A stretch of DNA of 24,444 nt, taken from the IMG/VR virus record IMGVR_UViG_3300012275_000062; one strand, given 5' to 3'. The translations under genes were made by a program, and so were the position numbers. Positions 1,138 to 16,100 of this stretch are shown piece by piece. The notes under the pieces are model-generated. The model was given only the letters and a program-made list of their open reading frames with translations, searched no databases and had not been told where the DNA came from. This DNA comes from a virus. Taxonomy: Duplodnaviria > Heunggongvirae > Uroviricota > Caudoviricetes. The number at the start of each line of letters is the position of its first letter. Positions within the stretch are counted from its first letter, which is position 1.

Positions 1138-2394
1138 TCATTCATTTTTAACTGCTTCATTTGACCCAGCTTCAAAACTTGATATTTTAAAATTAACAAG
1201 TTCTTTAATAGAATGGCAAATATTCATTAAATCATGTATCTCGAAATTATCACATTTTCTCAGAACATCATCATTAGTTGAGATATTAATTAAATTCATT
1301 ACGTCTTCGGCATTGAACTTTTCGTCATGCAAAACATTTTGGAATGTTGTTTGTATTACTTTGTAATAGCTATTAATATTTTCACTGTTTGAATGTGTAA
1401 GTTGATATAAATGTCTTATTTGTAGATATAATTCAAGCACTCTGTCTTTGAATAATTCTTCATCACTTTTAGTATTGTTAGAAAACTCATTCTCAAACTG
1501 GGATGTTAATTCTTCTTTTTCCTTCGGATCAATAGTCAGAGTCTCGGTTTTTTCAATTGCTTTTTTTAGTATTGGACTCAGTGTATTTGTAAGGCGAATT
1601 ACTTCATCAAGATCTTGTTTAGTAAAATCTCTATTATGAGCAACTTTGCATCTGAGTCGATATAAAATACTCCAATTTTTTATTATAGTGTCAGCATTTG
1701 CTTCGATGTTTGACTCAAAGAATTTTTCCCAGTTTGTTCTGGGAACGATTTTTTTCAATTCTGAGAATATATCAGCATTAATGTCTTTAAATTCAAGCGG
1801 GGTTAATTTTCGGATCAAATCTGTTATTTCAATCTCTCGGTAAGATTTGAATATAAAGTCAGAAAGTTCAATAAAGTCAACTTGATACATTAAATTATGT
1901 TCATTATATTCTGTGTTTTTTTCGGATTTTTTCAATGCTTCTGAAAATTCCTTCGGCACTGAATCTTTTGTCCAAGACAATCCAACGTTATGTATCATGA
2001 ATTTTGTTATTAATTTTCTCATTAAGTTTTCAATTTCATGGATTAATGGATAAGCCTGAATTGAGTAATATTTGCTTATATCATCCCAAATAATTTGAGT
2101 GCTACCTAAATTACTTTCGCTAGATATTTTTTTGAAGAGTCTGGTTAATCTTGAGAAAGTGATTAAATTATCTTCACTAACGTCGTTTAGTGTTAATTTT
2201 ACAGAGATAGTTTCTTTATTGCTTCCATATTCTGATATATCATATTTAAATGACTGTTCTTTGAATTTTAATTCTTTTGGTGAAAATATGACTTCCTCAC
2301 TGGCCTCAATTATTTTTTTATAGGCTGACGGAGAGCGTCCAAAGGAAGTATCTTTATTCACTATTAATAACATCTCGACTATACATTCATCCAT
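1138..2394 (-). CDS. AT-rich cargo protein, 418 aa, with an R-x4-H (HEPN-like) motif; candidate abortive-infection or defense effector
   Basis: Long ORF in a very AT-rich segment with Lys/Asn/Ile/Glu-rich codon usage unlike the backbone. Motif YRLRCKVAHNRDF (residues ~245-257, nt ~1636-1653) fits the HEPN R-x4-6-H signature. SD GAGGAG lies 7 nt upstream of the ATG at 2394. Co-oriented with cI and int. Confidence 0.7.
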   Translation of the reverse strand: MDECIVEMLLIVNKDTSFGRSPSAYKKIIEASEEVIFSPKELKFKEQSFKYDISEYGSNKETISVKLTLNDVSEDNLITFSRLTRLFKKISSESNLGSTQIIWDDISKYYSIQAYPLIHEIENLMRKLITKFMIHNVGLSWTKDSVPKEFSEALKKSEKNTEYNEHNLMYQVDFIELSDFIFKSYREIEITDLIRKLTPLEFKDINADIFSELKKIVPRTNWEKFFESNIEANADTIIKNWSILYRLRCKVAHNRDFTKQDLDEVIRLTNTLSPILKKAIEKTETLTIDPKEKEELTSQFENEFSNNTKSDEELFKDRVLELYLQIRHLYQLTHSNSENINSYYKVIQTTFQNVLHDEKFNAEDVMNLINISTNDDVLRKCDNFEIHDLMNICHSIKELVNFKISSFEAGSNEAVKNE

Positions 2395-4237: not shown

Positions 4238-4352
4238 NNNNNNNNNNNNNNNNNNNNNNNNNNNNNNNNNNNGAAAAGCACATCACCTCTTGAACAGTAT
4301 CGCCAACAAACTTATCGGTAACGCTCTATTAGCTCCTGAAGTTTGTAGGTGA
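4068..4352 (+). CDS. Hypothetical early protein, interrupted by the assembly gap 4238-4272
   Basis: ATG 4068 preceded by a strong SD (AAAAAGGGGAAATC). Protein-like N-terminus MAQATEGVFYQFFHKGEKYSIHEDEF... Length is unreliable because of the N-run. Confidence 0.45.
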   Translation: MAQATEGVFYQFFHKGEKYSIHEDEFASCYPSLSGDGSYYFTLRDGTFFRGERVQEXXXXXXXXXXXXXKAHHLLNSIANKLIGNALLAPEVCR

Positions 4353-4627: not shown

Positions 4628-4981
4628 GTGGGGGAATTTATGGCTATTGAAGGCGCTGTGGTGACTGTCCCATTAAGCCCCGGTAAACGCCTGGACGGAC
4701 TGAACCATATTGCAGAATTACGCGCAAAAGTGTTTGGCCTGAATATTGAGTCGGAGCTTGAAAGGTTCATTGAAGATATGCGCAACCAAAGGGACGTTAA
4801 CAATAAACAAAATGTGAGGGCATTGGCAGCCATATTTTATATGGCAAAAATTCCGGCAGAACGTCATAGCGTCAATATTAGTGATCTGACTACTGACGAA
4901 AAGCGGGAACTGATTAAAGCAATGAATCATTTTCGTGCAGTGGTGAGCTTATTTCCAAAACGGCTAACCATGCCGAATTAA
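4628..4981 (+). CDS. Hypothetical early protein, 117 aa
   Basis: ORF in the rightward early operon. Alternative in-frame start at ATG 4640. No motif recognised. Confidence 0.55.
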   Translation: MGEFMAIEGAVVTVPLSPGKRLDGLNHIAELRAKVFGLNIESELERFIEDMRNQRDVNNKQNVRALAAIFYMAKIPAERHSVNISDLTTDEKRELIKAMNHFRAVVSLFPKRLTMPN

Positions 4982-5048
4982 TCCAAAACAGAAATTAATG
5001 GCGTAAACCCGCAGGGTTTCTTATGGCCCAAATTCAGGAGAAACAACT

Positions 5049-5282
5049 ATGCGAAATATTGAAATCCGTATCACCAAATCCGGACCAGATGATGCTGGAC
5101 TTAACCAATTGCTGACTGATGCACGCATGGAAGAACGCCGGGCACGTGCCTCAGCAATGGCAGCCCGTCTTGATAGCCTGGCTTGCCATATCACGTCACG
5201 CCAGCTTAACCACGTTGAAGCGGCAGAGCTGCTGCGTATTGCGGCTGAAAACATTCAGAACGAAGCGCAGGAGATCCACTGA
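5049..5282 (+). CDS. Hypothetical early protein, 77 aa
   Basis: Strong SD (AGGAGAAACAACT) before ATG 5049. Stop overlaps the next start (TGATG at 5280-5284), suggesting translational coupling. Confidence 0.6.
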   Translation: MRNIEIRITKSGPDDAGLNQLLTDARMEERRARASAMAARLDSLACHITSRQLNHVEAAELLRIAAENIQNEAQEIH

Positions 5283-5509
5283 TGGCTGATTCAATGGACC
5301 TCGTGCAACAGCGCGTTGAAGAAGAACGTCAGCGCCATATCCAAACAGCTCGCAGCCGAAAGACTGGGGCTTCTTCTCTGGAGTGTGAGTGTTGCGGAAT
5401 CGTCATCCCGGAACAGCGCCGTGCTGCAGTGCCGGGCTGTGATCTCTGCGTCACCTGTAAGGAAATAGCAGAGCTGAAAGGGATGCACTACACCCGAGGT
5501 GCTTTGTGA
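5282..5509 (+). CDS. TraR/DksA-family C4 zinc-finger protein, 75 aa
   Basis: CxxC-N17-CxxC arrangement ([25 protein letters not shown]), typical of phage TraR-like zinc fingers. Coupled to the upstream ORF. Confidence 0.65.
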
Positions 5510-5528
5510 GCTTTGGAGTCTTCCAGTG

Positions 5529-7955
5529 ATGTCTGAGCTACTAAAAGATAAAGGCGGTCCGATTGTGACCGCCGTGGCCTTTCCATGGAATACCCCAAAA
5601 AAAGCGGTTAACCCGTATTTGGACCCGGCGGAATTTGCGCCTGAGTCTGCGCTTTCAAACCTCATCACTCTGTACGCTGCAGATAACGAGCAGGAGCATC
5701 TGCGCCGTGAGGCGCTGAGTGATGAGGTGTGGGAACGTTATTTCTTCAATGAATCCCGCGATCCTGTCCAGCGTGAAATAGAGCAGGATCGGCTGATTAG
5801 CCATGCCAGAATGGCCCGCGAGCAGCAGCGCGTTAATCCCGATTTGGTGATTATTGCCGATGTAAGCGCCATGCCTGCCCATATCAGCAAGCCTCTGTTA
5901 GAGCGGATTAAATACTTCAATAGCCTAGGCAGGGCTAAAGCTTATTCCCGTTATCTGCGCGAAACAATCAGGCCTTGTTTTGAGCGGCTGGAGCGAGTGC
6001 GTGACAGCCAGGTGTCTGCATCTTTCCGATTCATGGCGAGCCAGGACGGGCTGGAGGGATTGCTGGTACTTCCTGAAATGAATCAGGATCAGGTCAAGCG
6101 CCTTTCCACGCTGGTTGCGGCACATATGAGCATGTGTCTTGATGCGGCTTGCGGTGATCTGTTTGTCAGTGACGATGTTAAACCAGAAGAAATCCGCCAG
6201 GCGTGGGAAAGGGTTGCTGCAGAAGCCATGCGCCTTGAGGTCATTCCGCCTGCCTTTGAGAAGTTGCGCCGCAAAAAGCGCCGTCGCAAGCCAGTGCCTT
6301 ATGAACTGATCCCACCGTCGCTGGCGCGCATGCTGTGCGCGGACTGGTGGTATCGCAAATTGTGGCAGATGCGCTGCGAGTGGCGGGAGGAGCAGATGCG
6401 CGCCGTCTGTCTGGTCAACAAGAAAGCGTCCCCGTATGTCAGTTATGAAGCCGTGATACACAAACGCGAGCAGCGTCGCAAATCGTTGGAGTTCTTCCGC
6501 TCGCATGAGCTGGTCAATGAAGACGGCGACACGCTGGACATGGAAGATGTAGTGAACGCCAGCAACAGTAACCCGGCACACCGCCGTAATGAAATGATGA
6601 CCTGTGTTAAGGGGCTGGAACTGATAGCGGAAATGCGCGGAGACTGCGCGGTGTTCTATACCATCACCTGCCCGTCACGCTTCCACGCAACCCTCAACAA
6701 CGGCAGACCTAATCCGAAGTGGACCAGTGCCACTGTCCGGCAGAGCAGTGATTATCTGGTTGATACGTTCGCCGCTTTCCGCAAGGCCATGCACAAGGCC
6801 GGATTGCGCTGGTACGGCGTCCGCGTTGCAGAGCCGCACCATGACGGCACCGTGCACTGGCATCTTCTGTGCTTTATGCGCAAAAAAGACCGTCGTTCCA
6901 TCACCGCGCTGCTGCGTAAGTTCGCCATCCGTGAAGACCGCGAGGAACTGGGCACCAATACCGGCCCGCGCTTCAAGTCCGAGCTAATCAACCCGCGCAA
7001 GGGTACACCGACCAGCTACATCGCCAAATACATCAGTAAGAACATCGACGGGCGCGGGCTGGCTAAAGAAATCAGCAAAGAAACCGGCAGATCATTGCGT
7101 GACAGCGCCGAGCATGTCTGTGCCTGGGCGTCACTGCACCGTGTCCAGCAATTCCGTTTCTTTGGTATCCCGGGGCGTCAGGCATACCGTGAGCTGCGCT
7201 TGCTGGCTGGTCAGGCGGCGAGAGTGCAGGGCGAACGCAAAGCGGGTGCACCGGTACTGGATAATCCGCGTCTGGATGCGGTACTGGCAGCTGCAGATGC
7301 GGGTTGCTTTGCCACTTACATCATGAAGCAGGGCGGTGTACTGGTTCCCCGCAAACATCACCTTGTCCGCACGGCTTATGAGCTTAACGACGAACCGAGC
7401 GCTTACGGCGATCACGGTATCCGTATCTATGGCATCTGGTCCCCGATTATAGAGGGCAAGATTTGCACGCACGCGATGAAGTGNNNNNNNNNNAAGTGGA
7501 AAAAGGCCCGTAAGGCCGTTGACGTTCAGGAGGCGGCAGCCGACCAGGGCGCTTGCGCCCCTTGGACTCGTGGCAATAACTGTCCCCTTGCTGAAAATTT
7601 GAACCAGCAGGAGAAAGATAAATCAGCTGATGGGGACACCAGAACGGACATTACCTGCATGGATGACAAGGAGTTGCACGATTATCTGCACAGTTTGAGC
7701 AAAAAAGAGCGCCGGGAACTGGCTGCAAGGTTACGCCTGGTTAAGCCGAAACGGCGTAAAGACTACAAACAGCGAATTACAGATCATCAGCGACAACAGC
7801 TCGTCTATGAGCTGAATTCCAGAGGATTTGATGGTAGCGAGAAAGAGGTCGATTTACTCCTTCGCGGCGGCAGTATTCCGTCAGGAGCAGGCCTGCGTAT
7901 CTTCTATCGGAACCAGCGTTTGCAGGAAGATGACAAGTGGCGGAACCTGTATTAA
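5529..7955 (+). CDS. A: Replication initiation endonuclease A (P2 gpA family, rolling-circle HUH nuclease); contains an N-gap at 7484-7493
   Basis: HUH motif [12 protein letters not shown] (HWH at 6855-6863) and tandem catalytic tyrosines [12 protein letters not shown] (~7017-7040), both closely matching recalled P2 gpA. Start set at ATG 5529 ([12 protein letters not shown] upstream); the ORF track starts at GTG 5499. Confidence 0.85.
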
Positions 7956-8024
7956 TTACGCGGGTTAACAATTCGTGCTCTTAATAATACCAGGCATATC
8001 AGGCTGATGAACGTAAAAAAACGT

Positions 8025-8067
8025 TTTACATCAGTAAGATTATTATATACTGTAAATATAAACAGTG
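8025..8067 (+). promoter_or_regulatory. SOS-regulated promoter with a near-consensus LexA box
   Basis: TACTGTAAATATAAACAGTG (8048-8067) fits the CTGT-N8-ACAG LexA box and overlaps a -10-like TATACT (8046-8051). A -35-like TTTACA sits at 8025-8030. It is immediately upstream of the 62-aa gene. Confidence 0.55.
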
Positions 8068-8108
8068 GTTATGTATACAGTGTTGCTTGTGGTGTCATAG
8101 GAGGAAAG

Positions 8109-8297
8109 ATGCAGGACTATTTTTTGGAGTCTTTGAAGCTCCAGCGCATTGATTTTTTTCTTAAGCTTGTAGCGGCCAGTGAGTGTAGTGATGAAGAGAA
8201 GAGACTGGCTATCCAGTGGGTTTCTGAGCTGACTGACGAGTTGATGGCGAAAATTCGTAACTATGAATACAGCCGTACAATGGACGCTACCAGCTAG
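8109..8297 (+). CDS. SOS-controlled small protein, 62 aa; candidate Tum-like antirepressor
   Basis: ATG 8109 preceded by AGGAGG. It is the first gene downstream of the LexA box, in the position of the LexA-controlled tum operon of phage 186. Function is inferred from context only. Confidence 0.5.
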   Translation: MQDYFLESLKLQRIDFFLKLVAASECSDEEKRLAIQWVSELTDELMAKIRNYEYSRTMDATS

Positions 8298-8307
8298 GGG
8301 AAAACCT

Positions 8308-8537
8308 ATGCGCATTGAAACAATGATCGATAAAGAGCAGTAAATTAGCTAGGCGCTGTTAGAAGCCGTTGAATCCGAGCTTTACCGCAACCTGCAGCCT
8401 ATCTATCCAAAGACAGCAATCCGCATTCGTAAAGGTTCGGCAAACGGCGTTGAGCTGAGCGGCTTAAAACTTGATGAAGACAAAAGCGAGTGATGGAAAT
8501 CATGCAGCATGTTTGGGAAGATGAGAGCTGCTTTTAA
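8308..8537 (+). pseudogene. DinI-family gene remnant, disrupted by two in-frame stops and a frameshift
   Basis: MRIETMIDKEQ then TAA (8341) and TAG (8350), then ...AIRIRKGSANGVELSGLKLDEDKSE, then a frameshift to MEIMQHVWEDESCF. These pieces align in order with recalled E. coli DinI (MRIEVTIAK ... SVRYAAANNLSVIGATKEDKQRISEILQETWESADDWF). Confidence 0.45.
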
Positions 8538-8560
8538 ATATCGATTTAGGGGAAAATCTC

Positions 8561-8586
8561 AACCTCATGCAGTATCGCATGAGGTT
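8561..8586 (+). terminator. Hairpin downstream of the dinI remnant (possible terminator)
   Basis: Perfect 10-bp inverted repeat AACCTCATGC / GCATGAGGTT with a 6-nt loop, followed by a weak T-tract (CATTT). Confidence 0.3.
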
Positions 8587-8680
8587 CATTTAGGCGAAAT
8601 TTGTGGGAATTTTCTACAAGTTTATGAGCGAATAATTCATTTTTGATGTGTTAATTTCTTAACAATTTGGGCTTTAATTC

Positions 8681-8708
8681 TTGTAAAGCAAGACATAACG
8701 TTTATGAT
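8681..8708 (+). promoter_or_regulatory. Candidate sigma70 promoter of the two-gene cargo operon
   Basis: TTGTAA (8681-8686), 16-nt spacer, TATGAT (8703-8708), in an AT-rich intergenic region about 45 nt upstream of the ATG at 8754. Confidence 0.35.
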
Positions 8709-8753
8709 TGATAAATATAAAAAATCTGAATAGGCAGGAAAGGAGTTTAACTC

Positions 8754-9269
8754 ATGCCTGGGTTAGAAAATGCACAGCAAAATCAAGTTGATGAAATCGT
8801 TCCAGCAATGCAAATCGCATTGGTCGAAGAAGATATAGAACAACCCATCGCTGCCGAATACCTATACAGCCAGCATATAAGTGCGCTTGTGCCACAATGC
8901 CCTCCTGCCGAAGCGACAGAGTGCGATAGAGAATGCTGGCGTTTTACACTGAATCCTATAAGTCACAACTGCTTTTGGCCTCCAAAAAGAAGATCACCGC
9001 AGCGAATTGCTTCCGACGATGCGGAGGAGTGTTCTATGTGGGCGTTGTCTATGTATGAATCAGAGGCCCAGGCTACAAGAGCCTATACCATGTTAGCGAA
9101 GAAGATGAAAAATATCAGAAAAGCTATTGGTGATCACCTTGCTGTGGGTTCAGTAACCTGTAGTGATGGTAAATGTATGCCTGCTAGCAGAACCGGTCAC
9201 TTTGATTTTCATCCTTATGTGGATGCGGATTTCGTTAACGGGTTCCAAGTAATACGAGCATTACCATGA
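8754..9269 (+). CDS. Cargo gene 1 of a two-gene operon: 171-aa Cys-rich protein of unknown family
   Basis: Strong SD AGGAAAGGAG before ATG 8754. Seven Cys residues. Translation is protein-like but carries no motif I recognise. Stop overlaps the start of the next gene (ATGA at 9266-9269). Confidence 0.75.
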   Translation: MPGLENAQQNQVDEIVPAMQIALVEEDIEQPIAAEYLYSQHISALVPQCPPAEATECDRECWRFTLNPISHNCFWPPKRRSPQRIASDDAEECSMWALSMYESEAQATRAYTMLAKKMKNIRKAIGDHLAVGSVTCSDGKCMPASRTGHFDFHPYVDADFVNGFQVIRALP

Positions 9270-10357
9270 TAAAATTAGATGCTAGAAGAATAAATGCGTC
9301 AACTGTCGGAGATTATTCTTGGTACTCTGACCTCGTATATTTCGATGGTCCCCTAATTTGCTTGTTTAGAGGAAGCGGATATAAAGATGCTCTTTATGTC
9401 TGGCTTGATAATTCGGAGCGTGCCAATCGTTGGTGCTTGATTCCAGTATCAAGATCTACTTTGGACTCTTATCTTAACCAAAGAATGAGTTTAAGGGAGA
9501 TTATACAATCGAGCGAATATACATATATCTGCGATCATTTTGCGAAAACCGGAAGGAAGCACTACAACATTTTGCACGTTGATAGTTTTCCTGAGGAGTA
9601 TATGCCTGATGAAGATTCATATTTGTATGAAGAAATATGTACTGATGATGCATTGCTGTTGAAGCAGGAGCGCACCTCCAGTTATATGCTTGGATTAGAT
9701 AATCAGTTGTTTATAAATGATTTATCTGTAATACCAAAAATTTTCGAACAGCTCTATTCTTTCCATTACGGATTGGCTCATTTAGGACGGTTGTCGATTA
9801 GAAATACCATGTTGCGTCTGATGGGGAATTGGACGGGTGGAATATCAGCAGTAAATATATTTTCAGGGTTGAAAAATGTTATTCCTGTTTTGCATCGACC
9901 AGAGATTAGCTCTCTCCAATACAATTCACCGGGGCATATTGAGTTAAATTTACTTCCTGATTTGGCTCAAAGTGTTCAAGATGCATCTATTCGTGTGAAA
10001 AGTGAGCTAGTTTATGACCGTCTGGAGAAAATGTATAAAAATACATATGCATACTTCAAGGATAATGGGCTGTCAGGCTTTGATGAAGACGGCGGCATTG
10101 AAATTAGAAATATCGATAGTGATACCACCGGAAACCTACGTAAACGCGTAAGAATATTTTTTAGATGTTTGGGGTGGTCAAGTTATCAAGCTCAGTTTGA
10201 TCTGATCGGTGCCCATCCTCTACAACAATTACGTGCTGTGATGGCCTACTACAGGCGGCTCAAAATCTTGCGTGAATACATTGTCTCCGAGAAGCTTTTT
10301 GTTGGTCAGTCTCGGGTGTTACAGCAGCCACAAATTGCTCTGCCTCCTGAGGATTAG
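9266..10357 (+). CDS. Cargo gene 2 of a two-gene operon: 363-aa protein of unknown family
   Basis: Translationally coupled to gene 1. AT-richer than the backbone. No Walker A, HUH, HEPN or other signature found by eye. Confidence 0.8.
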   Translation: MIKLDARRINASTVGDYSWYSDLVYFDGPLICLFRGSGYKDALYVWLDNSERANRWCLIPVSRSTLDSYLNQRMSLREIIQSSEYTYICDHFAKTGRKHYNILHVDSFPEEYMPDEDSYLYEEICTDDALLLKQERTSSYMLGLDNQLFINDLSVIPKIFEQLYSFHYGLAHLGRLSIRNTMLRLMGNWTGGISAVNIFSGLKNVIPVLHRPEISSLQYNSPGHIELNLLPDLAQSVQDASIRVKSELVYDRLEKMYKNTYAYFKDNGLSGFDEDGGIEIRNIDSDTTGNLRKRVRIFFRCLGWSSYQAQFDLIGAHPLQQLRAVMAYYRRLKILREYIVSEKLFVGQSRVLQQPQIALPPED

Positions 10358-10413
10358 ATTCTGCGTTATGCTGCATGAATCCGCATGATCGTTTGAGGAT
10401 CGTTCTAGATGAG

Positions 10414-10437
10414 GCCCGTCAGCAATGGCGGGCTTTT
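10414..10437 (+). terminator. Intrinsic-terminator-like hairpin downstream of the two-gene operon
   Basis: GC-rich stem GCCCG (10414-10418) / CGGGC (10429-10433) followed by TTTT (10434-10437). It may instead be part of the cos-region structure. Confidence 0.3.
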
Positions 10438-10482
10438 GCTAATGTCATGCTGGCGCATGAAAACCACTACATAAAGCGGGCA

Positions 10483-10501
10483 GGCGTGGCGGGGATACGA
10501 G
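10483..10501. other. Putative cos (cohesive-end) site of the P2/186 family
   Basis: GGCGTGGCGGGGATACGAG: the first 13 nt match the 19-nt cohesive end I recall for 186 (GGCGTGGCGGGGAAAGCAT; P2 is GGCGAGGCGGGGAAAGCAC). It lies where cos is expected, between the right-end accessory region and Q. Confidence 0.35.
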
Positions 10502-10635
10502 CGCGCTCTGATATGAAAATCTGAACAAATAATTACAAAATGGTATCTTTTTGTTGCTATCATCATTTTTGATGGTAACTTAACCTTTTCAGTTTCTATA
10601 TTATAAAATTCTATCCAGAAGAAGGAATTTGTTTC

Positions 10636-12417
10636 ATGGCTGAACTATTACCGCAAACAACTTCTATACAAACTATTTATTCATGGTTTACTGAAGGTAA
10701 GATATTTGTTAATAGACGTTATCAACGAAAATTAGTTTGGACTGCAATAGAGAAACAAAAATTAATTGAATCCATTCAAAAAAAATATCCAATTCCTGCA
10801 GTTCTTCTCGCGGAAAGGGAAAATGATCCTGGCACATATGAAATAATTGATGGCCTACAAAGATTACATGCAATAATGTCTTTCATCGAAACAGGATATG
10901 AATCACTTGATGGAAAACGTTTTAATCTGGACGCTTTTCCCACAGCGAAAAATCGAGCGGATGAAGGTAAGTTTGTTGCAGTGAAAGCTGATAATCTTTT
11001 AAGTCAGCGTGAGGTTACTCAGTTATTGGATTATTCTCTTGCAATGTCCATTATGCGTAATGCGACTGAGAACGAAATAAATGATGTTTTTGATAGAATT
11101 AATACATACGGGCATAGACTTAGTGATCAAGAAAGGCGCCAGGCTGGTATACAAAATAAATTTTCAAATATGGTTAGGGATATTGCCTGTTCTATCAGGG
11201 GGGATGTATCTGACGACATATTGCTTTTAGAGCAAATGCCGTCTATTAGCATTGATTTGCCACTAACTAAACATGGTTACCAAATTCAGTCGGAAGAAGT
11301 ATTTTGGGTAAAACATGGGATCTTACGTTCAACAGACCTTCGTGACAGTATGGATGAGCAATGCATTGCAGATATAGCAGCTTGTATTGTTGGAGGTAAG
11401 TTAATAGATCGTTCCAAAGATGCGCTTGATCAGATTTATAATAATGAAGATGAAGAGTATAGTCGTATTAGCTCTGCTATTAATGTTTATGGTGAAGGAA
11501 AATTTGCAGAAGAGTTTAAATTCTGCATCCAGGAAATAACAAAAGTATGTAATAGTGACGGTGAAATTAAACTCAGGGATTTAATCTTTACTAAACGTAC
11601 TACAAATGCTTTCCCAGCCATATTTGCTGTGTTATTTATTGCTTTTCATGAATTACTCATTAAAGAAAATAAGAAGATTAATAATTATAAAGGTGTAAAA
11701 GACAATCTTAATAATATAGTCACTCGACTAGATACTAAAAGATCTGCTACTGGTGGGGAAGAGAGAAGAAAGAATATTAATTCTATCATTGGCTTGATTA
11801 AAGATAACTTTATTGATAGCGCCGATAGCAGTCATATCTATAATTCTCACAATACGGTGGATATTGAGGATATTTTACGAAGATCTGAAATAGAGCTTGC
11901 AAATTATGAACTGAAACAGGGTTTGTTGATGTTAGGCGGAGAGCGAACTATTGATGATGGCATTCATGAGAAAATATTCTCCACAATTTGTGCTATTGCT
12001 AACATCGGTAAAGGTAACAAGAACGGTGTAGTTGGTAAGTTATTGCTTGGTGTAACAGATAAACCAAGTGATACAAGTAGAGTAAAAGAGCTTGATGATA
12101 TAGATGCACATGTAGTTGGTGAGAGAAGTGTTGTTGGTGTTAAAAGAGAAGCTATTAAACTCGGCATATCAATGGAAGAATATTATAGACGTTTTTGCGA
12201 TGAGTTGAAAAAATCTGCTTTGAGTGAGCCTCTTAAATCACAAGTGGTGAGTTTGATTGACTATAATGACTTTTATGGTTATGGAGTTATAGTTATTACA
12301 ATTCCACTTCTAGCATCTTATTCTAGTTATGATGGGGATATTTATTATCGTGCTGGCGATAATACCGTAAAAGCAACAGTTATCGAAGCAGCAGATATTG
12401 CAACACGTTTTAAATGA
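10636..12417 (+). CDS. Cargo protein, 593 aa: N-terminal DUF262 (ParB/Srx-like) domain fused to a C-terminal Schlafen/AlbA_2-like domain; candidate single-gene anti-phage system
   Basis: DUF262 signatures NRRYQRKLVW (residues ~27-35, nt ~10714-10740) and IIDGLQRLHAI (~70-80, nt ~10843-10875), plus the downstream FDRINTYGHRLS block. C-terminal ELANYELKQ ... IFSTICAIANIGKGNKNGVVGKLLLGVTD (~418-475) resembles the AlbA_2 core. Very AT-rich. Own SD (GAAGGAA) and AT-rich upstream region. Confidence 0.85.
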   Translation: MAELLPQTTSIQTIYSWFTEGKIFVNRRYQRKLVWTAIEKQKLIESIQKKYPIPAVLLAERENDPGTYEIIDGLQRLHAIMSFIETGYESLDGKRFNLDAFPTAKNRADEGKFVAVKADNLLSQREVTQLLDYSLAMSIMRNATENEINDVFDRINTYGHRLSDQERRQAGIQNKFSNMVRDIACSIRGDVSDDILLLEQMPSISIDLPLTKHGYQIQSEEVFWVKHGILRSTDLRDSMDEQCIADIAACIVGGKLIDRSKDALDQIYNNEDEEYSRISSAINVYGEGKFAEEFKFCIQEITKVCNSDGEIKLRDLIFTKRTTNAFPAIFAVLFIAFHELLIKENKKINNYKGVKDNLNNIVTRLDTKRSATGGEERRKNINSIIGLIKDNFIDSADSSHIYNSHNTVDIEDILRRSEIELANYELKQGLLMLGGERTIDDGIHEKIFSTICAIANIGKGNKNGVVGKLLLGVTDKPSDTSRVKELDDIDAHVVGERSVVGVKREAIKLGISMEEYYRRFCDELKKSALSEPLKSQVVSLIDYNDFYGYGVIVITIPLLASYSSYDGDIYYRAGDNTVKATVIEAADIATRFK

Positions 12418-12420
12418 AAG

Positions 12421-12442
12421 AACGCCTGCTCAGGCAGGCGTT
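12421..12442. terminator. Hairpin between the convergent 593-aa gene and Q (likely bidirectional terminator)
   Basis: Perfect 9-bp inverted repeat AACGCCTGC / GCAGGCGTT with a 4-nt loop, starting 4 nt after the 593-aa gene stop. On the minus strand it is followed by TTCTTTCATTT, i.e. downstream of Q. Confidence 0.45.
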
Positions 12443-12457
12443 AATTATAAACAGGAA

Positions 12458-13435
12458 CTACAAAATATATTTATTAAATGTAATTATATTTTCATCCAGC
12501 CAACAATTAAGCGCTTGCATCAATTTTTGCAAAGGTAAAAGCTCATTCCGCACAAATACCTTACTAGCTTTCTCTACATCCCCAAACCCCCCGACATTGC
12601 TAGGCATAATCCCCATCATTTGCGGCGGTACGCGGTGCGCCGCCATCATGTCGTCCCGGCTCACGTTCTTGATATTCAGAAACTCATCCTTCGCCGCGAC
12701 TTCTGACAGAGGAATGATCTGAAGCCCATCCTTTTTGCCGTTAGGCGAGTACATAAACAGGTTGCGGAAGTTACCCGGTCCTTTGGCGCTTTTCATTGCG
12801 TTGCGGAGGTTGTTCACATCCTCCTGGTTTTGCGCGGCATCGGTCATGTACATGATGAAGCCTGCATGACTGCCGTTAATGTAATACTTCCGGCGGAACA
12901 GCGTGGCGGACTCGTTGAGCAGAGCGGATGGAATAGCAGAAAGATAGCCAGGCAGGCCGTAGATCTCCNNNNNNNNNNTTGCCATACCGTATTGCACAAA
13001 CCAGTAGGTATCCAGGTCTAATCCGCGTCGAGTGTATTTTGCCAGGGCAGGTTCAAGGGCGATAACTTCACCGAAGCGGTTCGTGCGTTTCTCCAGGTAG
13101 GCATTACCAAATACCAGATAGTCCTGCACAAAACGTGAAAAAGCCTGCTGGCTGAGCAACGGGTGAGGGATATAGGTGCTGGTCAGAATGTTGCACTTTA
13201 CTGCAATCGGTGAGCTGTGGTGTACGGCGGCGCGGAAGGTTCGCGCCAGGCCGTCGAAACTCACTGGTGGCTCATACCAACGGTCCATCTGTACGCATTC
13301 CACATAGTCCAGCAGTTCGCGGCGGTCCAGAACAGGAACGGGATCACCGAAGCTGAATGCTTCGGCTGAAGTCTGGTTTTTATGCTGGATCTGTTTCGTC
13401 GCCGCAGCGCGGTTCTTCTTACTCTTTCCCATCAA
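12458..13435 (-). CDS. Q: Portal protein (P2 gpQ family); contains N-gap 12969-12978
   Basis: Position and orientation match P2 Q, divergent from O/N and adjacent to P. Translation is consistent with recalled gpQ. Length is uncertain because of the gap. Confidence 0.85.
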   Translation of the reverse strand: MMGKSKKNRAAATKQIQHKNQTSAEAFSFGDPVPVLDRRELLDYVECVQMDRWYEPPVSFDGLARTFRAAVHHSSPIAVKCNILTSTYIPHPLLSQQAFSRFVQDYLVFGNAYLEKRTNRFGEVIALEPALAKYTRRGLDLDTYWFVQYGMAXXXXEIYGLPGYLSAIPSALLNESATLFRRKYYINGSHAGFIMYMTDAAQNQEDVNNLRNAMKSAKGPGNFRNLFMYSPNGKKDGLQIIPLSEVAAKDEFLNIKNVSRDDMMAAHRVPPQMMGIMPSNVGGFGDVEKASKVFVRNELLPLQKLMQALNCWLDENIITFNKYIL

Positions 13436-15124
13436 AAAATCTCCACAATATTGCTGGTATTGGCGGACTCGCCCTGCAGTGGTTCGTTAAACAGTGCGTG
13501 CATTGTTGCCCAGGCCAGATCGGCATGGCTGGCTTCTTCGCTGCGGCTGGCTTCATAGGTCGGGCGGTTGCCGCTGGCGGTGGTGGCGCGACGGATTGCC
13601 ATGAATGACTGCGCAATGTCGGTGTGCCCGGCGTCAAACTCAAGACGGCGGTGGCTGATAATGTCGTAGGCCTTGAGTACCAGGGCGTTTTTAACGTTGG
13701 GGTTGTAGACAAACTCCCGGACGGCAGGAAAAAACGCTTTCACGTTCTCGTAAACCCCGTGACCAACGCCGGTTGAGTCGATGCCGATATAGGTCACGTT
13801 GTACTGTTCGGTCAGTTTTTTGATGGCGTCAGCATGGGCGCGAAAGTCCATTCCGCGCCACTGGTGACGCTCAAGAATGCGCCGGGTCATAACCGATCCA
13901 CACTTCGCGCCAGCCAAACGGGCGCAGGGCCAGTGCATGAAAGTCGGTCCAGACTTCCCAGCTGTCCACCATGCACGCCTGCAATTCGCTGAGCGGGAAC
14001 ACGGACGCGAGATCGTCCACGAACTCGCACATCAGCAAGTTCTGGTATTCGTCAGGGCTGTACTCCATGCGCAACTGGTCAAGGTCGAACAGGTTACAGC
14101 CGCCTCGCACCGCATCTTCCACGGTGACTATCTGGCGGTATTGCCCGTCTGCGCACAGCAGGCCGGGGGCCAGATTGCTGTGGGACAGGTCGATGTCCAC
14201 CTTATCGGCTCTGTTGCGCCCACGGTTGAACAGCGCACCGGACCAGAACGGATAAGCACTGTGTGTCAGACTGGATGGCGTGGAAAAATAGGTCTGTCGC
14301 CATTTCTTGTGAATAGCCATACCGGAAGCCACTTTGCGCAGCTCCTGGAATTTCGGTATCCAGAAATATTCATCCAGATACAGGTTGCCGTGGTAACTCT
14401 GGGCCGTGCGGGCATTGGTGCCGAGGAAGTACAGCGTGGCCCCGTTAGGAAGCACCATCGGATCGCCTTTCAGCTCCACCTCCACTTCTTTGGCGAAGTC
14501 GATGATGTACTGCTTAAAGACGTGGGCCTGTGCCTTGCTGGCGGAAAGGAAAATCTGGTTACGCCCGGTCAGCAGGGCGTCAATCAGGGCTTCACGGGCA
14601 AAATAGAAGGTCGCGCCGATCTGGCGTGACTTCAGCAGGTTGCGGATGCGGTTGGTTTTTCCGGCTTCCCACCAGTGGCGCTGGTAGTTGAACATGGAGG
14701 AATGGAAGATTTCTTCCAGCTTCTCAATCTGTTCATCGGTGAAAACGTTCTTTTCCGGCTGACGGCGCGGGCCTTTGTTGCGGTTGGCGACGTTAGGGTT
14801 TAAGTCGGCTTCGTTGCCGCCATTGTTAAACTTGCCGATCCGCGCATGGCGCTCCGACTGGCGCGCCAGCAGGTCAATCTCTTTGAAATCTTTCCCTTCT
14901 TTGTGCTCCTTCATAATGAGCTGGCAGTAGCGTGCGGCGGTGGTGAGCTGCATCTGATCCAGCGGCCCATAGTCACCCCACTTGTCGCGTTTTTTCCAGC
15001 TGTGAACGGTTGCAACTTTCTCGCCCAGCATTTCAGCAATGCGGGCTACGCGGTATCCCTGAAAGTACAGCAGCATGGCCTGCCGACGGGGATCGAGATC
15101 TGCGGGTGTCAGTGTGGTGTTCAT
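13432..15124 (-). pseudogene. P: Terminase large (ATPase) subunit, P2 gpP family, split by a frameshift in 13871-13938
   Basis: N-terminal 417-aa ORF (13871-15124) and C-terminal 168-aa ORF (13432-13938) are in different frames and overlap. Together they are about the length of P2 gpP (~590 aa). Either real inactivation or an indel error in a draft assembly. Confidence 0.75.
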
Positions 15125-15266: not shown

Positions 15267-16100
15267 ATGACAGTGAAAGCAAAGCGTTTTCGCATCGGGG
15301 TGGAAGGTGCCACCACCGACGGACGCGAAATCCAGCGTGAATGGCTGGAACAGATGGCAGCCAGCTACAACCCGGCGGTGTATACCGCGCTGATTAACCT
15401 TGAGCACATCAAGTCTTATCTGCCGGACAGCACCTTTAACCGTTACGGCAAGGTGACGGCGCTGTTTGTTGAAGAAATCACGGAAGGTCCGCTGGCAGGC
15501 AAGATGGCGCTGTATGCCGACGTTGAGCCAACGGAGTCCCTGGTGGAACTGGTGAAAAAAGGCCAGAAATTATTCACCTCTATGGAAGTCAGCCCGAAGT
15601 TCGCTGATACGGGCAAAGCCTACCTGGTCGGCCTGGCTGCCACTGATGACCCTGCCAGTCTGGGTACGGAAATGCTGACATTCAGCGCCAGTGCAGCCCA
15701 TAACCCGCTGGCAAACCGCAAGCAGAATCCTGCCAATCTCTTTACCGCTGCAGAGGAAACGGTGATCGAACTGGAAGAAATCCAGGACGACAAACTGTCC
15801 CTGTTTGCCCGCGTCACGGCGTTGTTTACCAAAAAAGAGCAGTCCGATGACGCCCGGTTCGCTGATGTGCATAAGGCCGTGGAGCTGGTCGCCACTGAGC
15901 AGCAGAACCTGAGCGCACGCACCGAAAAATCCCTGTCTGAGCAGGAAGAACGCCTGTCTGAACTGGAGACTGCTCTGCAGGAGCAGCAAACCGCCTTTAA
16001 CGAACTGGTGAATAAGTTGAGTCATGAAGACAGCCGCCAGGACTACCGCCAGCGTGCAACAGGCGGTAACGCCCCCGCTGACACTCTGACCAATTGCTGA
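15267..16100 (+). CDS. O: Capsid scaffolding protein (P2 gpO family)
   Basis: Position immediately upstream of the major capsid gene; Glu/Gln/Ala-rich coiled C-terminus typical of scaffolds; resembles recalled gpO. Confidence 0.85.
   Translation: MTVKAKRFRIGVEGATTDGREIQREWLEQMAASYNPAVYTALINLEHIKSYLPDSTFNRYGKVTALFVEEITEGPLAGKMALYADVEPTESLVELVKKGQKLFTSMEVSPKFADTGKAYLVGLAATDDPASLGTEMLTFSASAAHNPLANRKQNPANLFTAAEETVIELEEIQDDKLSLFARVTALFTKKEQSDDARFADVHKAVELVATEQQNLSARTEKSLSEQEERLSELETALQEQQTAFNELVNKLSHEDSRQDYRQRATGGNAPADTLTNC

Follow-up and report, generated by a model that had tools for sequence, protein, structure and literature searches.

A DUF262-Schlafen fusion gene as probable anti-phage cargo between cos and the portal gene of a P2-like prophage

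Which function is served by a long, AT-rich gene that lies between the cos site and the portal gene (Q) of a P2-like prophage? The question is raised by IMG/VR virus record IMGVR_UViG_3300012275_000062, a stretch of 24,444 nucleotides from a member of the Caudoviricetes (the whole stretch is referred to here as the window). The gene encodes a protein in which a ParB-like DUF262 domain is followed by a helical domain resembling ParBDB and then by a Schlafen nuclease domain. It is probably an anti-phage gene that stands on its own, belongs to the DUF262-Schlafen class and serves at this place as cargo for lysogenic conversion. Its product would couple a nucleoside triphosphate (NTP)-gated DNA sensor to a Schlafen ribonuclease (RNase).

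10636..12417, plus strand: DUF262-ParBDB-Schlafen fusion gene, a candidate single-gene defence system of the pSlfn7 class (593 amino acids plus stop, ATG start)

The 593-residue protein matches cluster P0001 exactly, and WP_000818977 of Escherichia coli W is essentially the same protein. A preliminary description of the stretch, drawn from its letters alone, had reported this open reading frame (ORF), several short motifs, the lack of a Walker A motif and an AT-rich composition, and all of these were found. The motifs are YQRKLVW (residues 29-35), DGLQR (residues 72-76), FDRINTYGHRLS (residues 152-163), ELKQ (residues 425-428) and AIANIGKGNKNGVVGKLLLGV (residues 453-473); no Walker A motif is present in the protein. 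The content of guanine plus cytosine (G+C) is 34.7% for the gene (23.2% at third codon positions, GC3, and 28% over the first 150 nucleotides), against about 0.55-0.57 for the backbone, as represented by gene A and the late genes.

How well can the three domains be assigned?

10681..11145, plus strand: ParB-like DUF262 (GmrSD_N) domain, residues 16-170, proposed NTP-binding sensor (Pfam PF03235)
11158..11820, plus strand: helical middle domain, ParBDB-like, residues ~175-395 (match to NsnA, helical in the AlphaFold2 model, conservation)
11863..12414, plus strand: Schlafen/AlbA_2 nuclease domain, residues ~410-593, proposed effector

The first domain is matched by PF03235 over residues 16-170 with 81 bits (E=1.6e-22; cut-off 33.2), as the preliminary description had anticipated, and the same profile matches all 23 aligned members of the family. 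The best PADLOC match is NsnA of the Menshen system (E=8e-31), and since this match spans residues 7-383 (profile positions 49-370 of 385), the part that follows DUF262 is taken as a ParBDB-like domain. ParBDB is the helical DNA-binding domain that follows DUF262 in NsnA, GmrSD, SspE and DndB (Menshen analysis). A search of the protein against NCBIfam returned only a weak ParB match.

The C-terminal domain required more than one line of evidence. The SLFN_AlbA_2 profile (PF04326) scores 19.8 bits on the whole protein and 24.9 bits on residues 401-593 alone, both under the cut-off of 25.3, and the assignment therefore needed support from the family and from structure. Within the family, 21 of the 23 aligned members match PF04326 at E<=0.001 (best 5.5e-10), and when the C-terminal domain is modelled alone, structural matching recovers the Schlafen fold. 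The full-length AlphaFold2 model is mediocre (predicted local distance difference test, pLDDT, 71.5; predicted template modelling score, pTM, 0.48) and gave no Foldseek match at E<=0.001, although it still recovers BrxU (7p9k, prob 0.91) and, for the N-terminal part, ParB, Noc and KorB. Thus, the AlbA_2 call of the preliminary description failed by Pfam on the window protein and was upheld by alignment and structure, and the structural check that it had proposed gave nothing at this threshold for the full length and a Schlafen fold for the C-terminal domain. Against the PDB, neither the family profile nor the first 200 residues gave more than marginal or spurious sequence matches (D7r4, CALM and a 50-residue stretch of an HNH-domain protein).

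The motifs of both outer domains are conserved throughout the family.

10723..10740, plus strand: DUF262 motif I, QRxxxW (Q30-R31-K-L-V-W35, within YQRKLVW); Q30, R31 and W35 invariant
10849..10863, plus strand: DUF262 motif II, DGLQR, residues 72-76; all 5 residues invariant in 23 sequences
11089..11103, plus strand: DUF262 motif III region, FDRIN, residues 152-156; F152 and N156 invariant
11317-11385, plus strand: block GILRSTDLRDSMDEQCIADIAAC in the helical middle domain, residues 228-250; near-invariant
11893..11916, plus strand: catalytic motif Ex4ExK (E420-L-A-N-Y-E425-L-K427); all three residues, and E418, invariant
12058..12060, plus strand: D475 in the GVTD strand, candidate third acidic catalytic residue; invariant

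The invariant set therefore comprises Q30, R31, W35, D72-G-L-Q-R76, F152 and N156 in the sensor and E418, E420, E425, K427 and D475 in the nuclease. DGQQR is the canonical nucleotide-binding form of motif II in GmrSD and BrxU, and DGLQR is a variant of it. D475 presumably corresponds to D252 of SLFN11 and D248 of SLFN13. The Ex4ExK motif is invariant in alignments of both 23 and 35 sequences; Ex4(E/D)xK is the motif that defines the prokaryotic and human Schlafen nucleases (Perez Taboada et al., Nat Microbiol 2026, PMC13056530). The GILRSTDLRDSMDEQCIADIAAC block is almost unchanged from E. coli to cyanobacteria, a degree of conservation equal to that of the catalytic motifs. By analogy with the conserved charged residues of GmrSD-M and SspE-M, this block may line an NTP- or DNA-binding groove.

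Is there a protein of this kind that protects a cell? A recent survey catalogued 5,930 prokaryotic Schlafens in 55 architectures, among which DUF262 fusions account for 1.8%, and seven Enterobacterales systems were assayed in MG1655 from their native promoters (PMC13056530). One of them, EcoSlfn7, a DUF262-Slfn protein from E. coli UC4224, lowered the plating of many phages, T7 most of all (~540-fold), and it defends when expressed alone from a plasmid (PMC13056530). The genome of UC4224 yielded a single homologue of the window protein, WP_028985442 (589 amino acids), and for this reason it is taken as the cloned EcoSlfn7, which it appears to be. The two proteins align over their full length, with 60% identity and 77% positives over 592 residues. 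They share the three-part architecture, nearly the same length (589 versus 593 residues), Ex4ExK and DGLQR, and the UC4224 gene occupies the same slot, as it too stands between cos and the portal gene in a prophage resembling P2. By contrast, 40% of the residues differ, mostly in the Slfn domain, the window protein has a 4-residue insertion and a different hairpin lies downstream of its gene. WP_028985442 also clears the Pfam AlbA_2 threshold, with 30.9 bits.

With a Schlafen domain, the Ex4ExK motif, a fused DUF262 and full-length homology to EcoSlfn7, the window protein is assigned by its sequence to the DUF262-Slfn (pSlfn7) class. The gene is mobile, horizontally acquired cargo, and the defence role put forward for it in the preliminary description is backed by experiment on the 60%-identical homologue in the same slot. 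The gene class, the defence role of the class and this very protein are already on record. WP_000818977 is present in the tables of loci from the P2 gpA-gpQ hotspot, which also contain a cluster 114, "DUF262/AlbA_2", with 27 occurrences (Rousset et al. 2022, PMC9122126). The printed sequence of cluster 114 starts exactly like the window protein. Among the systems given as validated in that study, the window protein was not found (PMC9122126). The domain combination is thus not the atypical one that it had first seemed: it forms a catalogued class and a family of more than 2,000 matches, and it was listed in the P2 tables of 2022.

How might such a protein act? The DUF262 and ParBDB-like domains would together detect, in an NTP-gated manner, some sign of infection, most likely the DNA of the phage. 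Detection would turn on the C-terminal Schlafen nuclease, with E420, E425 and K427 in its active site, probably together with D475. The nuclease would then cleave tRNA, and possibly other RNA, so that translation stops and the phage yield drops. A tRNA-cleaving effector is proposed because RorSlfn5 and human SLFN11 cut tRNA through the same Ex4(E/D)xK-type motif (PMC13056530); tRNA cleavage has been reported for pSlfn5 and human SLFNs and for no DUF262-Slfn protein (PMC13056530). NTP-dependent sensing of DNA is proposed because DUF262 is an NTPase sensor of DNA in GmrSD and SspE (Menshen analysis) and ParBDB binds DNA. The identity of the trigger, the dependence on NTP, the RNA target and the activity of the window allele itself are thus put forward by analogy with these relatives.

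The closest parallels for this scheme come from other Schlafens. RorSlfn5 (a pSlfn5 protein), SLFN11 and SLFN13 have the same Schlafen nuclease fold and Ex4(E/D)xK motif and likewise combine sensor and effector in one polypeptide, and in SLFN11 the sensing of DNA leads to cleavage of tRNA, just as is proposed for the window protein. The sensors differ: an Ig-like domain that binds the tail assembly chaperone of T5 in pSlfn5, a helicase domain in SLFN11 and DUF262 in the window protein. The Slfn domain is N-terminal in pSlfn5, whereas it is C-terminal here. Moreover, the nuclease of pSlfn5 is conserved and its sensor variable, while in the window family DUF262 changes least: between members from Proteobacteria and cyanobacteria, pairwise identity falls from 74% in DUF262 to 61% in the middle domain and 59% in Slfn. 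High conservation of the sensor half, together with the broad range of EcoSlfn7, fits a generic cue, one that phages could hardly alter, and not a fast-evolving phage protein. A more specific version can be offered tentatively, and it is doubtful as it stands: DUF262-ParBDB might directly sense, under NTP gating, an invariant feature of infecting DNA (free ends, single-stranded DNA or replication intermediates) and allosterically license the Schlafen tRNA-cleaving nuclease.

Could the protein instead be a type IV restriction enzyme similar to GmrSD or BrxU, in which DUF262 reads modified DNA (e.g., glucosylated hydroxymethylcytosine) and the C-terminus is a DNA nuclease in the place of DUF1524? 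There are reasons to consider it. DUF262 senses modified DNA in GmrSD and phosphorothioate in SspE (Menshen analysis), the best full-length structural match is BrxU and the AlbA_2 domain of SAMD9 binds DNA (7ksp). The RefSeq product name is "GmrSD restriction endonuclease domain-containing protein". The likeness to GmrSD, BrxU and SspE extends to the N-terminal motifs I-III (QRxxxW, DGQQR-like and FxxxN), the helical ParBDB-like domain and the single polypeptide. However, where those proteins have a DUF1524 nuclease of the HNH type, the window protein has a Schlafen domain of the RNase type. DUF1524/HNH gave no Pfam match at E<=1 in the 593-residue protein, in agreement with the preliminary description, and the C-terminus bears the invariant Ex4ExK motif of Schlafen RNases. 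To our knowledge, T7 DNA contains no hypermodified bases. It was T7 on which the assayed homologue was most active (PMC13056530), and DUF262 systems that lack DUF1524, which are described as uncharacterised, may use RNase effectors (Menshen analysis). A type IV restriction activity is thus improbable. The earlier suggestion that the protein senses modified DNA is unsupported, given an RNase-type motif in place of HNH and a homologue that is broad in range and strongest on T7; membership of the GmrSD/BrxU/SspE group was ruled out, despite the RefSeq name, by the missing DUF1524 and the Schlafen-fold C-terminus.

The Menshen system offers another comparison. NsnA has DUF262 and ParBDB like the window protein, and a DNA sensor with an RNase effector has been proposed for Menshen as well. 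By contrast, NsnABC consists of three genes, with an ABC ATPase (NsnB) and a separate NsnC, whereas in the window protein the effector is fused to the sensor. Membership of Menshen was ruled out, as no NsnB or NsnC neighbours occur in the window or in the other contexts viewed.

The DUF262-Slfn family is large and uniform. Among the candidates scored, more than 2,000 matched at E<=1e-5, with a uniform length of ~590 residues, and identity is ~60% across Enterobacterales, Xanthomonas, Paraburkholderia, Achromobacter and cyanobacteria. When the Slfn domain alone was compared with 1.84 billion cluster representatives, 319 relatives were found, and in those of full length the domain nearly always lies at residues ~400-600 of a protein of ~580-620 residues. 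Since position and length are constant, the fusion of DUF262 and Slfn is old and stable. Its genetic surroundings are not: when E. coli W, UC4224, a P4 satellite, Pluralibacter, Paraburkholderia and a cyanobacterium are compared, no conserved flanking gene is seen. The flanking genes are those of phages in E. coli, nitroreductase and MscS genes in Pluralibacter, ParDE and IS605 in the cyanobacterium and phage or transposase remnants in Paraburkholderia. As the flanking genes are never conserved, the gene is standalone.

Three alleles are found in E. coli. The allele shared by the window and E. coli W occurs, with 99.9% nucleotide identity, in 18 of 5426 complete genomes and is chromosomal every time; the UC4224 allele occurs in 3 genomes. 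The third, WP_063081156, is 62% identical to the window protein and occurs in 9 genomes. In the single context viewed (positions 7001-8767 of locus L011, from E. coli Ec-FL1-1X, NZ_CP066836.1), its gene is flanked by psu and the integrase of a P4-like satellite, beside tRNA-Leu, and the protein also appears in a P4 table (Rousset et al. 2022, PMC9122126). Thus, the family fills cos-proximal hotspots of helper phage and satellite alike. Two assemblies labelled E. coli DH5alpha (NZ_CP026085.1 and NZ_CM135829.1; 4.83 Mb) carry the gene with 99.9% identity. As far as we know, K-12 derivatives are expected to be without a P2-like prophage, and these records are probably mislabelled or from W-like strains.

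Has the window allele kept its activity? It might be inactive or decaying, or be without effect on coliphages. Of the two DUF262-Slfn constructs assayed, one gave a phenotype (PMC13056530); the window protein falls under the Pfam AlbA_2 threshold and, relative to most of its relatives, has an insertion of four residues (KNGV) in its Slfn domain. However, the frame is intact over 593 residues and every motif residue is kept. The 99.9% identity extends over 18 genomes of different origin, and Pluralibacter homologues with 89% protein identity have the same insertion. Loss of activity is therefore unlikely.

What kind of place does the gene occupy? The window represents a prophage of the P2/186 type, with the order integrase, a low-G+C cargo ORF, CI, CII, Fil, DUF5347, gene A (5499-7955), cargo, cos, cargo, portal gene, terminase and late genes.

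10483..10501, no strand assigned: cos core GGCGTGGCGGGGATACGAG, homologous to the 19-nucleotide P2 cohesive end (blastn against the P2 cos junction)
10511..12455, no strand assigned: Q-side cargo cassette; P2-like homology stops ~10-16 bp past cos and returns at the portal stop codon

The cos site was located by blastn, which aligned positions 10452-10511 with the P2 cos junction (45/60 identical, E=7e-6). A direct scan of the window with the P2 cos 19-mer, in which as many as 3 mismatches were allowed, gave no match; the actual site carries 4. With cos at 10483-10501 and the portal stop codon at 12458, the location of the gene between cos and Q, given in the preliminary description, stands, and the gene is ~135 bp from cos. 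The distance quoted there for P2 does not: the Q stop lies 187 bp from the cos end, and not about 100 bp. The homology breakpoints between the window and UC4224 are at 10510 and 12456 (the portal stop codon), and the prophages of UC4224 and E. coli W sit at the same rcdA/ybjJ chromosomal site.

The gpA-gpQ interval adjacent to cos is a known P2 defence hotspot (Rousset et al. 2022, PMC9122126), and the gene has the properties of its contents: it lies between A and Q, next to cos, is low in G+C and stands in a place where contents vary among E. coli W, UC4224 and strain 200088. The placement is therefore not unusual, as had been thought: gpA-gpQ is the canonical hotspot of P2, and the slot between cos and Q is used in UC4224 and strain 200088 as well. 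No discussion of placement on the Q side, as opposed to the A side, within gpA-gpQ was found in the hotspot literature.

The nearness to cos raises one more possibility, that a protein with ParB-like and AlbA_2 DNA-binding domains has a non-defence role in the prophage, in packaging, partition or regulation at or near cos. Besides the short distance, it can be said for this that the ParB fold (matches to Noc, KorB and ParB) and AlbA_2 (in helix-turn-helix-linked proteins) bind DNA elsewhere, and that ~30% of pSlfn genes lie away from known defence genes (PMC13056530). However, P2 and most P2-like prophages lack the gene, this allele is confined to 18 of 5426 genomes and an unrelated gene takes the same slot in strain 200088. 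The family also occurs in the P4 satellite hotspot and, as a lone gene in Pluralibacter, between housekeeping genes where there is no cos. Its nuclease residues are invariant, and the homologue defends from a plasmid on its own (PMC13056530). A service to the prophage of this kind is highly improbable, and anti-phage cargo remains the better account of the gene.

Which signals accompany the gene, and are they its own?

10580-10609, plus strand: promoter-like site TTAACC-18-TAAAAT, weak (consensus scan, 9/12 matches)
10622-10626, plus strand: Shine-Dalgarno sequence AAGGA, ending 9 nucleotides ahead of the ATG
12421-12442, minus strand: hairpin with a perfect 9-bp stem and a 4-nucleotide loop, T-rich tail on the minus strand

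The gene has its own Shine-Dalgarno sequence, as first described. The promoter consensus scan upstream of the gene gave no excess over shuffled sequence. An ORF of 49 amino acids at 10375-10524 was dropped as a gene because it runs across cos, and Rfam and tRNA scans of the whole window gave no matches. The hairpin after the stop codon had been taken as belonging to the gene; its perfect 9-bp stem was found, but its ownership was not upheld. It occupies the place of the annotated P2 terminator tQ of the Q-P operon (P2 160-181), and from this position and the T-rich tail on the minus strand it follows that it is not simply the terminator of the cargo gene. It is possibly a bidirectional terminator. 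The hairpin arms are AACGCCTGC/GCAGGCGTT in the window and GGTTACCT/AGGTAACC in UC4224 (positions ~11775-11806 of locus L002), unrelated in sequence and at the same tQ position. Since each allele of the cassette has its own hairpin at the place of tQ, the essential Q-P operon apparently ends in a terminator that is provided by the cargo cassette.

On the other side of cos lies a second defence system. In P2 the A-side slot holds the old and tin cargo, in the same hotspot as the Schlafen gene and on the opposite side of cos; in the window it holds PD-T4-10.

8754-9269, plus strand: PD-T4-10 gene A, in the A-side slot (PADLOC E=1e-75)
9266-10357, plus strand: PD-T4-10 gene B, in the A-side slot (PADLOC E=8e-172)

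The A and B genes overlap and encode proteins of 171 and 363 residues, with G+C contents of 0.45 and 0.40. An arrangement of "three hypotheticals + WP_000818977" in the hotspot tables may correspond to this layout of PD-T4-10 and Schlafen gene (Rousset et al. 2022, PMC9122126). Do the two work together? None of the 5426 complete E. coli genomes contains PD-T4-10 together with the window allele of the Schlafen gene. E. coli W has the Schlafen gene without PD-T4-10, and in strain 200088 PD-T4-10 is accompanied by another gene between cos and Q, which encodes 208 residues (positions 4904-5530 of locus L012; weak match to a two-transmembrane, 2TM, effector). Because the two assort independently, the Schlafen gene is not part of the PD-T4-10 system, and a two-gene system made of both was ruled out. 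The genomes that match the left half of the locus and those that match the right half overlap solely at the cos region, 10367-10517, and in genomes with PD-T4-10 only, the match to the window ends at 10506-10517. The window prophage has the look of a recombinant whose two parts meet at cos. The interval between cos and Q behaves like a second cargo slot, which is filled independently of the classical slot on the A side (old/tin) and is joined to it by recombination at cos.

A further low-G+C ORF lies near the integrase end of the prophage. It encodes 418 residues (1138-2394, minus strand; G+C 0.29) between the integrase and CI and has weak matches to HEPN_Swt1 (E=5.5e-4, under threshold) and to the PADLOC candidate PDC-M34B (E=4e-7). 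In its place, E. coli W has a KAP P-loop NTPase. The location is probably another slot for defence cargo, the integrase-primase hotspot, which is mentioned in a 2026 P2/P4 preprint.

The window contains 55 N (4238-4257 and following, and ~12969-12978). In E. coli W, positions 15333 to 15395 are the counterpart of 12968 to 12979, and the second N run therefore compresses ~60 nucleotides of real sequence, and the XXXX in the portal ORF is an N mask. The terminase gene appears as two ORFs, 13432-13938 and 13871-15124.

What does the gene mean for the family and its hosts? It is a naturally diverged second allele, in the same prophage slot, of the one DUF262-Schlafen gene that has been shown to defend E. 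coli, and a third allele is found in P4 satellites. This allelic series can be used to ask what DUF262 senses and how the Schlafen nuclease is switched on. The RefSeq name is misleading, as it implies a DNA-cutting type IV enzyme while the effector is an RNase-type Schlafen domain. E. coli W carries the gene, as do strains derived from it for industry (KO11FL), and this may alter the phage sensitivity of production strains. If direct sensing of DNA were true, the protein would be a one-polypeptide bacterial counterpart of SLFN11, in which single-stranded DNA is linked to tRNA cleavage.

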